A stretch of DNA of 64,000 bases from an uncultured archaeon (GTDB lineage Archaea > Asgardarchaeota > Lokiarchaeia > Sigyniarchaeales > SOKP01): NCBI GenBank assembly GCA_964447495.1, contig CAYUTF010000002.1, positions 37,288 through 101,287 on the forward strand, read 5' to 3'. Both the position numbers and the translations under genes were made by a program. This document shows positions 5,723 to 63,931 of the stretch, piece by piece. The notes beneath the pieces were generated by a model. It did no database searches. It saw only the letters and a list, made by a program, of their open reading frames with translations, and had not been told where the DNA came from. The first letter of the stretch is position 1; each line of letters starts with the position of its first letter.

Positions 5723-7962
5723 TTAAAGAATCTTTTTTAACTCTAAAATTAGATTTTTGGGATTGACTCTGTCAAATTGATAAATTTCTGCTTTTCCGAA
5801 ATCTTTAAAATTCTCCTTTATCTTATTAGCAGCAAAAGTATTTACACCTAATCCTTGAGTGGCATAACTCTTTTTTGGTTCTAACACTACAAGATGAACC
5901 CCTTTTTTAGATAAAGCCTTTGTTAATTCTTTTAATTCATTGATAATCACATTATAATCACTTTGTACTTGGGCAATTAAATCAGGATATTTTACGGAAA
6001 TGTTTGCACCACAATCAGAACAAATAAAAATTACGGGGATTATATTTCTATTCTTTAATTTTTCTGCATTAATTAATTTAAGAGATTTCTTTAATGCTGC
6101 AGCCATTGGTGTATATGATTTTCCTTCAATATTTTTTACTTTATTGGCAGCATTCTTGAAATAAACCGTTGGTTTTTGAAGAACAACTGCATCTTTTCCT
6201 CGAAAAATTATCAGACTTATTTTGTCCTTCTTTCGATAACCTTCTTTTTGTAAAGATAAAATTACATCTGTCATTTGCTTTATTACATAGTACATCGAAG
6301 CAGAGCTGTCTAATACAAAAAATAAAACCAATGGTGCACGATATTCGTATATTTTGTCCATTAAATCATACTTATTGAATTTAATGGGAAAATCAATATC
6401 AGTTTGATTATATATTGTATTTTTCAAATAATTTCTGATAGTTGCATCTAATGCGATACTTTTGGGGTTATTAATTGGAGTTCGATATGATACGTACCTT
6501 CCTTTTTGTGAGGAAGAAATTTTGATTCTTCTTCCGATTCCTCTTCCACCATAGTTAGAAACTTTCCTTTCTTTTCGAATATTATCCAAAATCGAAGTCA
6601 TTTTTTTTTCCATTTTATAGATTAATGGGAGAGCATCGAAATCATAATCTAAAAAATCAAACAACTCCTCATTAAAGGGAATATCCTTTACTTTCCATCC
6701 TCCAGCCGGTGAAGGACTTCTTTTTTTATTATCATGATATTTTGGTGCCGGTAATTTCTGTTCTTTAGTTTCTGGTACATCAACCTTTTTTGGATCTATT
6801 GATTGCCGTTTAAATTCTTTCTGAGGGGCATCGTCATATTTCAGAGGACCTTCTGTGTCTTTATTCGGTTTATAGGTATTAGTATCTTCATATGCTTTCT
6901 GTATTTTTCCATATACCTCAACAATTTTAGCTTTTATCTCTTCCGGAGTCATCTCATAGTGAAGGGATTGAATACGATGTTCAAAAACTAAATCCATAGC
7001 TACATTCAAATCATCCTCAGCAACCATCTTTCTCCCGTTAAAAGCCGCATGAGCACGGGCACATCTGATAAAGGTAATATCTGCTCTTTGAGAAAAAATA
7101 CCTAATTCATTAACAAGCCTTGATACAAACTCATACACAGTAGAAGGAATTTGAACTTCTTTCATAATTTCACGAGCATTTTTTATTTTTTTCCTTAGCA
7201 TTTCCTGTTCTTCTTCATATAATTTATGAAATTCTTTTGGATTATCATCAAATTCTATAACTCGTCTTGAAATTTCTGCTCGTAATTTCGGATCACGAGG
7301 TGCTTTGATTTTAACTTCCAAACCTAGTCTGTCAGCTATCTGTGGGCGGAGTTCCCCCTTTCCGAATCCTAATTCGCTGTGAATATAGGATCTTCGGGGT
7401 TCATACTCCCGACCAAGATAAATCGCGAGGGATGAGATACAGAGATTCCTTCTCGTTCTATTATGTTAACACCTGATGCCGCTGAATCCAATAAAACATC
7501 TACGATGTGATCTTGTAATAGATTTATCTCATCTACGTAAAGAATTCCTCTGTGAGCTTTGGCAAGCAATCCAGGATGAAGACTGCGTATACCTTCTGTA
7601 AGTACTTTATCAATAGACAAAGATCCGCAGACCATATCTTCCGTAACTCCTAAAGGTAAGTCAATTATGCGCATGCTACGCCTTGCCCTTTCCATTGTTC
7701 CATCCTTAAGTTTAACACGACATTCATCACATAATTCATCAATTTCTGCGTTTGGATCACACGAAAACGTACAATCTTTCACCACTTCTATTTCAGGCAT
7801 CATTTCTGCCAAGCTTCTAACAGCCGTAGATTTTCCTGTTCCTTGTTGCCCAGTGAGTAATACTCCAGCAATTTGAGGGTCTATAACATTAAGAATTAGA
7901 CCCATTTTCATTATGTCTTGACCGAGTATTGCTGTAAATGGGAAACTATTCCTTTTTACCAT
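5723..7962 (-). CDS. Mg/Co-chelatase ChlD/ChlI-like AAA+ ATPase with C-terminal vWA domain; two exons (7962-7392, 7359-5723), 735 aa when spliced
   Basis: Walker A GQQGTGKS, Walker B LYVDEINLL, and vWA MIDAS DSSAS..T..SD. The two track ORFs join in frame (571+1637=2208 nt) and give MNPEEGELRPQIADRLGL when 7360-7391 is removed. Confidence 0.85.
7360..7391 (-). other. Putative 32-nt BHB-type mRNA intron (phase 1)
   Basis: AUCCUAUAUUCACAGCGAAUUAGGAUUCGGAA. Central helix CCGA/UCGG, bulges AG^A and AA^A, intron stems UCCU/AGGA and AUUC/GAAU. Contains an in-frame UAG. Confidence 0.8.
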
Positions 7963-26561: not shown

Positions 26562-28014
26562 TCACTCTATGAAAATATTTCTAAATCTATTTATAACTTT
26601 TTCAATTATGTTTTTTAACTTTTTAGGACCAATCTTAATTATAATAAAAAGTGTAATGATTAGGATAACAATAGATAAAGTAATCATTATTCCAATAAGA
26701 AACTTGAAGATTAGAGTATAATATATCGATGCTAGTGTTATCTGATAGAGTGTTGTTATAAAACCTATTTTGAAAAACTGTTTAAAACTGATAGGACGCT
26801 TATTTTGTTCAGCTATTTGGACTACTAATATGTTATCCCCAAGCGGTGTAAGATTATCTCCCCAATTAGCTCCAATAGCTAGACAAAAGAAAAATTGATG
26901 TCGCATAGCTGATGGGTAGTTATTTGAAATGGTATTTATGACAGGGATTAACAATTTAGTTATAGGAATATTATCAATAGCACTGCTTAAAAATGAAGAT
27001 ATCCAGAGAATAATAATGAGTTGAGAAAATATATCTCCTCCAGAGAGATTTGACATTATTTCTCCCAGGAATTGAACAACTCCCAGGATATCAAGAGCTC
27101 CAGCAATAATAAATATCCCCAAAAGATAGAGGATTAACTCAAAATCTATTTTAGAAATAATTTGTTTTGCTTCAAGTCTACTAATGATTATTAAAAATAA
27201 TGCCATAATTAACGCAATTATATCAGTAGGTAATATTGATGTAGGAATAATAATAAACAAGATAAATACAAGGATTAACGTAAATAGTGATTTTAATAAC
27301 AACATTTTATTAGGTACAAAATTCCATACATTAAATTCTCTTAAAATTTTAATACCTTCTTGGGGGATGTCTAGGGATTTCCTAAATATAAAAATAAAGA
27401 AGACAAGTGTTAAACAAAAATTATTAAAGAAATCGTTCCAACATTCAAAAAGAAATCAATAAATTGAATATCAGCATAAGTACTAATTAATATATTAGGT
27501 ATAGATGAAATCGTGAAAAAAGTTCCACCAATATTGACTAAAATTGCTTGAGTTAGTATATAAGCAGAAGGATTTACATTTAAAATACGAGAAACTGTTA
27601 TTGTCAGAGGGATAAGTATAATAACAGTCAGAATGTTGTTTAATATCGCAGAAATAAATATCGTAATTAAACAAAAAATTGACATTAGATAAAGTGGCTT
27701 TCCTTTTGATAGTTTAATTAAGTTTAAAGCGATATATTGAAAAAGCCCTGCTTCATTAGAAATTGCCACAATAAGCATCATGCTTATAATTAAAATAAGG
27801 GAGTGAAGATTTACAAAACCTTCACTTTCAGTTCCAAATAATAGTTCAATGATTACATTAAAGTTCATTCCTTCTAAGAACGTTCATACAAAATAAACAA
27901 TAACTGCTCCTGATAAAGCTGCTATTGCTCTATTTAATTTTTCTGTGATTATAAGAATTATTACTCCAATGAAACATCCTAAAGCTATAATTATACTAAG
28001 AATTTTATAATCAC
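26562..28014 (-). pseudogene. SLC13/ArsB/NhaD-family permease, disrupted
   Basis: Homology runs from ~28014 (DYKILSIIIAL..EKLNRAIAAL). There is no in-frame start, an in-frame TGA at 27884-27886, and a 1-nt frameshift in a T-run near 27410. SAILNN and SSAIDNIP motifs are present. Confidence 0.7.
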
Positions 28015-44255: not shown

Positions 44256-46043
44256 TTATCCTTCTTTTTCAATATATTCTAAATTTTCTAAAAGAGATCT
44301 TAACTTTAAGGCATTTGCACCTCCAGATACCTGTATATTAACTATTGAATCCTCATCCGTACCAGTAACATTGGTTTCGATTAATACCTTTTCTGCTCGT
44401 ATCTGTTTTGTTTGCCGTTTACTTAATGCTTCTTTTAAGGGTTGATCCAAATTTGGAAATTCAGCAGCAATTTCTACCCAGACTTCTTTTTGATGAGAAT
44501 ATTTAAACGTAAAATCTGAGACTGTTTGTTTATAAAGTTCTTGATCGCACCAATTAATTAGATAGGCTCTATTAGGAAATTCAAGATCATCAATTAAATT
44601 ATTCCTAATTTCAGATAAACTTTTAATATCTCCATTCTTCACAGCGATATCTATTTTTCTAGCTAATTTTGAATACTTTTTTGCTTTTACTGATTTTATA
44701 AAAGAGATCAGATCAAATTTAACTATTAAATCGTTCATTGCATAATTATCGAGCATTTTTAAATCATTTACTTCTGGAGTTCCATCACGAAAACGAGTAG
44801 CTATTTCATAACAGGGCTTTCGATTAATATATCGTTTCTTAATTTCTTCTAAAACATGTTTAGTAAACTCATATTTATTACCCCAGAATGGTGCTTTCTC
44901 CAATTCTCGTGATGTATATTTCACGCGATGGGATATTATGTAAGGTGCAATTGTATTTACAATATTAATATCAACTATATTCAAGTTTAATAACCATGCT
45001 AAAGCTTTAGAATATCTAAGAAGATCTTTTGCTACTCTTACACTTAGAATGGAATCAATTTTATTGCAAACGCTTTGTTCGGTGTTGAAATGACATCCAG
45101 AACACAATCCAGAACTGGGTTTGATATTTTCAGAATTCCCCTTATCTACGCGAGCACATAAAGTATATTCTCTTATTATTGCATGAATATAATTATTCAC
45201 TTCTGTTTCGAATTTCATCTTGTTTACATGGTACCAAATTTCCATGAGACCATCAATATGTAAGATTTTAGGTACTTCAATCAATTCATCATATCCAGAA
45301 TATTTTTCGTCCTTTCCTGTAAGTATTAATGATAAATCATTACTTGTTGGCATTGAGATAGGAACTGATATTCCAAAACGATCTAGAAACGGTTGAGACA
45401 GTTTTCGAATAATTTGGAAATCAAATTAAATTTCGAATGTCCCAACATCTTGTGGATTTATAGTAGCATAAAGCGTGTATTTTTCTATAGTATTAATGGC
45501 ATCGTAATATTTTACTTTTCCTTCAGCTAATAAGGATAAAAGAATATCTTGGGCATATGGTGTCAATCTGTTGACCTCATCGATAATTTTCCAAAATCCA
45601 GTTACAAATTGCCTCCAAACGACTACTTCTTCCCCGTCTTTCATTAACTTTCCTAATTTTAAAGTCCCTGTAAGTTTTTCTTCTGTGAGTTGCGGTTAGC
45701 CGTTAAACGCTGAGAGCGATTAACTATGACCCCTTACAATGGAACTTTCAATTTGATCCAATGTCATACCAGTGAACATCCTACCTAATAGTTTAACTAA
45801 AGTAGTTTTACCCCCACCATGTCCTCCAACTAATAACATAGCAGAGTTTGGTACTAGCGCATTTAAAACACACATAGATAAAATTTCAGGCAATGTATTT
45901 GTTATAAGCTTCTTCTTATCCTCATTAAAATATTTAACTTCCAAATTTTTAGAATGAACAAATAATTGATTTGCTTGGATGAGGTTAATAGTGTTCCATA
46001 CTTTTTTTCTTAATGATTCTTCTTCTCCTAATATATTTGACAT
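44256..46043 (-). CDS. MoxR-like AAA+ ATPase; three exons (46043-45726, 45695-45432, 45401-44256), 575 aa when spliced
   Basis: Walker A GGHGGGKT and Walker B IIDEVNR. The three track ORFs share one frame. Removing two 30-nt inserts (318+264+1146=1728 nt) gives RGHPQLTEEKL and NPQDVGTFELSQPFLDRFG. Confidence 0.85.
45402..45431 (-). other. Putative 30-nt BHB-type mRNA intron (phase 0)
   Basis: AUUUAAUUUGAUUUCCAAAUUAUUCGAAAA. Exon stem GGGACA/UGUCUC, helix UUCG/CGAA, bulges AA^A and AA^C, 7-bp intron stem. Contains an in-frame UAA. Confidence 0.82.
45696..45725 (-). other. Putative 30-nt BHB-type mRNA intron (phase 0)
   Basis: AGUUAAUCGCUCUCAGCGUUUAACGGCUAA. Helix GGUC/GGCU, bulges AU^A and AA^C, stems GUUAA/UUAAC and CGCU/AGCG. 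Contains two in-frame UAA. Confidence 0.82.
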
Positions 46044-63831: not shown

Positions 63832-63931
63832 GGGGCTGTGGATTAGTGGAAGATCGTTCGCTTGGCATGCGAAAGTTAAGGCACTTTTACCTAACCGTAA
63901 GAGGCCGGGGGTTCAATTCCCCCCAGCTCCA
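63832..63931 (+). tRNA. tRNA-Ala(GGC) with a 28-nt intron at position 43/44; CCA not encoded
   Basis: Acceptor GGGGCUG/CAGCUCC with G3:U70, anticodon arm UUCGC-UUGGCAU-GCGAA, T arm GGGGG-UUCAAUU-CCCCC. The mature form is 72 nt after intron removal. Confidence 0.93.
63874..63901 (+). other. tRNA intron with BHB motif at non-canonical site 43/44
   Basis: AGUUAAGGCACUUUUACCUAACCGUAAG. Helix UGCG/CGUA, bulges AA^A and AG^A, stem GUUA(A)GG/CCUAAC. Confidence 0.88.

Follow-up and report, generated by a model that had tools for sequence, protein, structure and literature searches.

The window analysed here is a 64,000-nucleotide stretch of contig CAYUTF010000002.1, AT-rich at 29.8% GC, whose encoded proteins have their closest relatives in metagenome-assembled genomes (MAGs) of Lokiarchaeota/Promethearchaeota (Asgard). 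On its minus strand lies the gene of a MoxR-like AAA+ ATPase, and within that gene is the subject of this report, a 30-nucleotide (nt) insert that is a candidate bulge-helix-bulge (BHB) intron. The gene occupies a single frame from 46043 to 44256 that is interrupted by three in-frame stop codons, all of them inside two inserts of 30 nt each. Open reading frame (ORF) finders give the gene as pieces of 107, 72 and 365 amino acids (aa), and public records annotate it as three separate (hypothetical) proteins. Its parts are listed below in window positions, with the inserts named as the introns that they appear to be.

44256..46043, minus strand: MoxR-like AAA+ ATPase gene (AAA_5/AAA_3), one frame with two 30-nt inserts; predicted spliced product of 575 aa
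45726..46043, minus strand: exon 1, codons 1-106, with the Walker A motif GGHGGGKT; ends in ...AGG GGU CAU
45696..45725, minus strand: predicted intron 1, AGUUAAUCGCUCUCAGCGUUUAACGGCUAA, 30 nt, with in-frame UAA codons at 45722..45720 and 45698..45696
45432..45695, minus strand: exon 2 (PQLTEEKL...NPQDVGTFE)
45402..45431, minus strand: predicted intron 2, AUUUAAUUUGAUUUCCAAAUUAUUCGAAAA, 30 nt, with one in-frame UAA
44256..45401, minus strand: exon 3 (LSQPFLDRF... to the stop codon)

Read on the minus strand, the sequence around the first insert is ...AGG GGU CAU|AGUUAAUCGCUCUCAGCGUUUAACGGCUAA|CCG CAA CUC..., and the 107-aa upstream ORF (46043..45720) ends at the first UAA of the insert. An earlier, sequence-only reading of this DNA had described a 30-nt in-frame insert with two UAA codons that would leave a 107-aa stub, and both the minus-strand reading and the ORF list bear this out. 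Excision of intron 1 yields ...IVRGHPQLTEEKL... just past Walker A, the product that had been proposed, and this agrees with 120/120 homologues. The spliced protein matches Pfam AAA_5 (E=1.3e-13) and AAA_3, and the junction peptides predicted from splicing are IVRGHPQLTEEK and GTFELSQPFLDR.

The homologues used here are the 120 best database matches, Lokiarchaeota/Promethearchaeota proteins that align at 70-85% identity over 100% coverage. None of the 120 has a residue inside either insert; the orthologue alignment that had been suggested as a check for ten extra residues at this point thus found none. The length of the protein after removal of both inserts, 575 aa, is the exact length of 107 of these homologues. 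At the DNA level, intronless relatives with 79-81% nucleotide identity align to the window with clean 30-nt gaps (GGTCAT|CCACAA). Intron 1 has A as its first and last base, with U before it and C after it; its boundaries are unique because sliding them by a single base alters the invariant His-Pro junction. In BHB introns the cut lies between nucleotides 2 and 3 of each bulge (PMC2738675). Cutting AU|A and AA|C would join CAU to CCG and encode RGH|PQL, the junction of 120/120 homologues, and the boundaries defined by the homologues coincide to the nucleotide with the cut sites predicted from the BHB. The elements of this motif are the following.

45728..45731, minus strand: 5′ strand of the central BHB helix, GGUC (exon 1), which pairs with GGCU at 45701..45698 (intron)
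45725..45727, minus strand: 5′ bulge AUA, with the predicted cut between 45726 and 45725; invariant in nine variants
45702..45724, minus strand: inner stem-loop, GUUAAUCGC / UCUCA / GCGUUUAAC
45695..45697, minus strand: 3′ bulge AAC, with the predicted cut between 45696 and 45695; AA|C or AU|C among the variants

The four central pairs are C-G, U.G, G-C and G.U, and the inner stem has 8/9 positions paired, with one U.U mismatch and the loop UCUCA. Each of these elements, from GGUC/GGCU with its two G.U pairs and the bulges AUA and AAC to the nine-position stem with its U.U, is as the sequence-only reading had described it. Its term "canonical BHB" goes too far, as the outer helix is 1-2 bp long, two of the central pairs are G.U and the minimum free energy (MFE) structure of the single sequence is not a BHB. 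The motif is near-canonical or relaxed; beside the strict hBHBh' form, with a flanking helix on each side, its marginal outer helix fits a relaxed (HBh'-like) type. The EndA splicing endonuclease of Asgard archaea is of the (αβ)2 type with an L1 loop, tolerating relaxed BHB motifs (PMC5829648). A relaxed BHB scan gave 3120 hits on both strands of the window, and the motif by itself says little because relaxed motifs are abundant in DNA of this composition. With the length fixed at 30, four of four central pairs together with at least 8/9 inner pairs occur at 9/127,890 positions (7e-5, a figure that applies to a register fixed by the homologue alignment), and intron 1 is among these positions.

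Evidence also comes from other copies of the insert. We observed intron 1 at the RGH|PQL site in nine distinct variants from independent metagenomes (NCBI, ENA and JGI contigs), with a length of 30 nt every time and in genes whose proteins are 68-98% identical to that of the window. Diverged copies were found in loci L024, L025 (NCBI GCA_004524705.1) and L026 and in eight metagenome contigs retrieved with a degenerate pattern. This pattern fixed the first 6 and last 11 bases of the intron and left only the middle 13 columns free, and for covariation we relied on these 13 columns and on the three variants found through their proteins. The central helix is paired in 9/9 variants; its changes include U.G to C-G through a synonymous exon change (GGU to GGC) and G-C to G.U in the intron. 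In the inner stem, 91% of cells are paired over the nine variants and four pairs are altered in both partners (one C-G, for example, has become U-A and another A-U or U-A), whereas slid controls in which the 3′ partners were moved by 1-3 columns gave pairing of only 19-50%. Unconstrained RNAalifold on the nine variants finds the stem and the central helix as well as the 5′ bulge of 3 nt, and it shows the 3′ bulge as 2 nt with an outer helix GG/CC. The translated insert is unconserved and contains a stop in every variant (for instance HS*SLSAFNG*, HS*TGLAFSG* and HS*LKLSINGY).

The codons that follow the insert behave as coding sequence. On either side of intron 1, non-synonymous divergence (dN) is 0.10-0.22 and synonymous divergence (dS) has reached saturation, and the spliced ORFs of L029, L030, L007 and L025 contain zero stops. 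The gene is therefore not a pseudogene, since its downstream codons are under strong purifying selection. Selection may also extend to synonymous sites of the exons next to the insert (window positions 45733..45726 and 45695..45693, compared over loci L001-L039). The Arg codon beside intron 1 is AGG in 8/9 intron-bearing genes and in 2/20 intronless ones (hypergeometric p ~9e-5, phylogeny ignored), the Gly codon is GGY in 9/9 versus 14/20, and the His codon is CAT in 9/9 versus 11/20; relatedness inflates such counts. This codon bias suggests that the outer GG/CC pairs and the AU|A bulge are selected for, as fits a splicing motif to which exon bases contribute.

Intron 2 has the same layout as intron 1 (1+9+5+9+4+2), with a 9-bp outer helix, a central helix of UUCG (45437..45434) and CGAA (45407..45404), and a 3′ bulge AAC. 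Its boundary has a leeway of 0-2 nt leftwards. To excise the 30 nt that the homologues call for, the central helix has to be 4 bp long; the MFE fold has a 6-bp central helix and would lead to a 28-nt excision in the wrong frame. The central helix is paired in nine variants, one of its pairs being C-G in two, U.G in one and U-A in six, and this covarying pair includes a synonymous exon change, TTC to TTT. Intron 2 is widespread in MAGs of Promethearchaeota, as shown by many fragments of 194-197 aa in the protein database.

The distributions of the two introns overlap and differ. Intron 1 is carried by the clade of the window (the window, L024, L026 and L025) and by the more distant L028, L029, L030, L034 and L035, and it is absent from the closer relatives L001, L006, L007, L027 and L036-L039 and from all 120 top database homologues. 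Among L001, L006, L007 and L024-L039 there are genes with both introns, with only intron 1, with only intron 2 and with neither. We used a rough neighbour-joining tree, built on partial sequences, only for calling the distribution patchy. This patchiness points to repeated precise loss, gain or transfer, a pattern also on record for cbf5 (PMC2738675). At the site of intron 2, L029 and L033 (SDBT01304074.1 and SDBS01121502.1) have a different 30-nt insert, TGAAGTATTCCATCTCGGATTTCTTACGAA, for which we found no BHB fit in any 30-nt register. The same two loci carry intron 1 with a perfect 9-bp stem.

We consider it very probable that the pre-mRNA of this Lokiarchaeal (Promethearchaeota) MoxR-like AAA+ ATPase contains a BHB intron at 45725..45696, most likely spliced by EndA and the ligase RtcB; that splicing occurs, and by which enzymes, we infer from sequence comparison. 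The intron had already been proposed from the sequence alone, and the coincidence of cut sites with homologue boundaries, the nine 30-nt variants, the compensatory changes and the downstream selection now support that proposal. In the transcript, the final bases of exon 1, GGUC, would pair with GGCU near the 3′ end of the intron, and the bulges AUA and AAC would thereby flank a 4-bp helix above the nine-position hairpin of the intron. EndA would leave two nucleotides of each bulge upstream of its cut (AU|A and AA|C), and RtcB would ligate CAU to CCG, with the 30-mer probably being circularised. Removal of the second 30-nt intron as well would give a single frame of 575 codons.

Unspliced mRNA would be translated up to the UAA at intron codon 2 and yield the 107-aa stub. 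We observed that the second in-frame codon is a stop in all variants of introns 1 and 2 (AGU UAA/UGA and NNN UAA, respectively). With a stop at intron codon 2, unspliced mRNA would always terminate at once, without producing an ATPase that carries a 10-aa insertion. The bases of the stop codon also lie in the inner stem, and selection for the stop and selection for the structure are inseparable.

Several observations weigh against an EndA-spliced BHB intron. Two of the four central pairs of intron 1 are G.U, and its outer helix amounts to one G-C pair if the 3′ bulge is taken as 3 nt, and to GG/CC if it is taken as 2 nt. The single-sequence RNAfold MFE structure of the window's copy (-13.0 kcal/mol) pairs GGU with ACC, compared with -9.1 to -9.9 kcal/mol for BHB forms; because single-sequence folding misses the BHB, MFE prediction is unusable as a detector here. 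Conservation of the columns fixed in the metagenome search is partly ascertainment, since the search pattern set them, against shuffle controls (9-22 of 500) the pairing stands out only moderately, and the variants of intron 1 share phylogenetic relatedness. Among 5.8 billion proteins, none crosses the splice junctions at about 100% identity, as a product of spliced RNA or of a strain without the introns might, the best reaching 84-85%. Additionally, no EndA or RtcB gene was seen within the 64-kb window.

Other explanations can be offered for the insert. It could be removed from the RNA by another route, through an unknown nuclease and ligase or by self-cleavage, and such a route gains some ground from the weak outer helix and from the fact that the action of EndA is something we infer. 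However, 30 nt is far too small for a group I/II intron, whose ribozyme core takes hundreds of nt, no Rfam family is found in the region of the insert, and the geometry is exactly that of a BHB; we judge this route very unlikely. Still less likely, in our view, is that the gene no longer functions, or that its pieces (107, about 72 and 365 aa) are made separately and are functionless or assemble non-covalently. Gene callers and public annotation do list separate hypothetical proteins, but dN/dS lies far under 1 to either side of the insert with dS saturated, and several divergent lineages that carry the intron keep an intact frame of ~570 codons. The 17 codons from intron 1 to the next Met (PQLTEEKLTGTLKLGKL) are conserved, although none of the pieces would begin there, and the split falls within the AAA+ core fold.

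The insert could also stay in the mRNA and be skipped by translational bypassing, with the ribosome leaving at CAU and landing at CCG. It resembles the bypass elements of phage T4 gene 60 and the "byp" elements of yeast mitochondria in being a short hairpin with a stop one codon past the take-off site, inside an otherwise intact and selected ORF. Against this stand the absence of matching take-off and landing codons (CAU precedes the gap, GGC UAA precedes the landing site, and there is no CAU or CAC), the covarying exon-intron pairs that in introns 1 and 2 are placed exactly as a BHB needs, the coincidence of the boundaries with EndA cut positions, and a tRNA intron of like build in the same organism (described below). 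To our knowledge, bypassing is not known in archaea, and we regard it as more improbable again. An assembly or sequencing artefact, for which we found no supporting point, has a practically negligible chance of being the explanation: three other assemblies, made from different samples, contain the split gene of the window at 100% identity, and identity in four independent assemblies together with diverged copies in at least 11 further contigs refutes it.

The EndA/RtcB-spliced BHB intron thus remains the reading that we favour for 45725..45696. Two further BHB-type inserts lie elsewhere in the window.

7360..7391, minus strand: third BHB-type insert, AUCCUAUAUUCACAGCGAAUUAGGAUUCGGAA, 32 nt, frame-shifting, in the ChlI-like AAA+/VWA gene 7962..5723
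63874..63901, plus strand: predicted 28-nt intron at the non-canonical position 43/44 of tRNA-Ala(GGC), gene 63832..63931 (Rfam tRNA, 56 bits)

The ChlI-like gene is broken into ORFs of 197 and 532 aa, and its insert has a central helix CCGA/UCGG with bulges AG(A) and AAA. The predicted junction GAAG|AGGGG restores MNPEEGELRPQIADRLGLEV, and MNPEE|GELRPQIADRLGLEV (GELRPQ) is contiguous in 117/120 homologues. The 197-aa stub is also found in other lineages (P0203 and P0213). Both intron-bearing protein genes of the window encode MoxR/ChlI-type AAA+ ATPases, and the ChlI-like insert and intron 2 each lie just upstream of a (L/A)DR(F/L) motif.

In tRNA-Ala(GGC), Rfam places a 28-29 nt insertion after the anticodon arm, and ARAGORN misses the gene. 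In the BHB of this intron, UGCG/CGUA forms the central helix, with AA|A and AG|A as the bulges. Because of this intron the tRNA needs BHB splicing, and it serves as an internal positive control for such splicing in this organism. Its intron begins with AGUUAA, as does intron 1, and the number of AGTTAA...TTAAC elements in the window, considered as a repeated family, is not significant (5 matches versus 1.9 expected, equalled by 7/100 shuffles).

Scanning the window for BHB motifs whose excision restores a long ORF gave 1765 or 32 hits depending on the filter, mostly operon junctions, and the filtered scan missed intron 2 and the ChlI-like intron because both deviate slightly from its template. 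Three candidates were rejected, 36983 being an overlap of genes in an operon, 41641 intergenic and 52986 on the wrong strand. We also rejected a 74-nt BHB-like candidate (27449..27376) in a CitMHS gene, where the frameshift-corrected protein scores 171 bits in a continuous match (profile 37-319), compared with 151 bits in two pieces for the "spliced" form. This gene, of the CitMHS/ArsB transporter family (27868..26562, minus strand), has a frameshift near a T-run (27410..27455), and removal of 2 nt restores its Pfam match; the frameshift may be a real mutation, an assembly error or programmed frameshifting. In 14 other genes of the window (~36-54 kb), comparison with the syntenic relative L001 revealed no further insertions.

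On a wider reading, Lokiarchaeia would harbour BHB mini-introns of strictly fixed size (~30 nt) as a population that invades protein genes and tRNAs and disappears from them again. At least three such introns occur in two AAA+ genes within 64 kb and their distribution over MAGs is patchy, on which basis we put this idea forward tentatively, as possible though on balance doubtful.

Among known systems, the closest protein-gene case is the BHB intron of cbf5, reportedly studied by Watanabe in 2002, by Yoshinari in 2006 and by Yokobori in 2009 (PMC2738675). In the literature covered here, confirmed BHB splicing of pre-mRNA is limited to cbf5 of Crenarchaeota, no other gene having been confirmed, and the cbf5 pre-mRNA introns are 16-44 bp long and occur in Desulfurococcales and Sulfolobales (PMC2738675). 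The MoxR-like intron resembles these in being a short non-coding intron in a protein gene, with a (relaxed) BHB, a predicted cut between bulge nucleotides 2 and 3, a presumably hetero-oligomeric EndA in the host and a patchy distribution that implies loss or gain in particular lineages (PMC2738675). It differs in its hosts, here MoxR-like and ChlI-like AAA+ genes of Asgard archaea, in the presence of two introns in one gene and in the strict length of 30 nt; furthermore, cbf5 splicing was shown by experiment, whereas the MoxR-like intron is known from comparison of sequences.

The second likeness is to tRNA introns, which are abundant in Asgard genomes (PMC11291895). Archaeal non-canonical tRNA introns, abundant in Thermoproteales and, according to PMC11291895, in Asgard archaea, share the motif and presumably the enzymes with intron 1, and the intron of the window's own tRNA-Ala(GGC) has the same layout as well as the same first six bases. 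The difference is that the host here is an mRNA, so that codons (AGG GGY CAU / CCN) make up the exon half of the motif, and the synonymous sites of these codons are apparently constrained. A more distant parallel is provided by HAC1/XBP1 of eukaryotes, in which cleavage by IRE1 is followed by ligation by a tRNA ligase or RtcB (for RtcB, see refs 5-7 of PMC5829648). There too a short mRNA intron is removed without the spliceosome, by an endonuclease and a tRNA-type ligase, and the outcome for the reading frame is changed; however, IRE1 cuts the loops of twin stem-loops and not a BHB, and that system is stress-regulated, whereas we saw no sign of regulation here. We found no description of BHB introns in Asgard protein-coding genes in the full-text literature, a search whose coverage did not extend to subscription journals; PMC11291895 speaks solely of tRNA introns and how abundant they are in Asgard genomes. 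The MoxR-like intron would thus work like the cbf5 intron and the non-canonical tRNA introns, in a new gene, in a new phylum and with two introns per gene.

If RNA confirms the intron, mRNA splicing by EndA and RtcB would reach the archaeal lineage closest to eukaryotes, some of the ORFs that are listed as "split" or "hypothetical" in Asgard MAGs would turn out to be misannotated, and the gain and loss of introns in a protein gene of a prokaryote could be studied in a tractable case. If the wider mini-intron view is true, the closest archaeal relatives of eukaryotes would routinely splice mRNAs with the tRNA-splicing machinery, and the stop at intron codon 2 could be a safeguard or a switch through which unspliced mRNA gives rise to a harmless stub of a hexameric ATPase.

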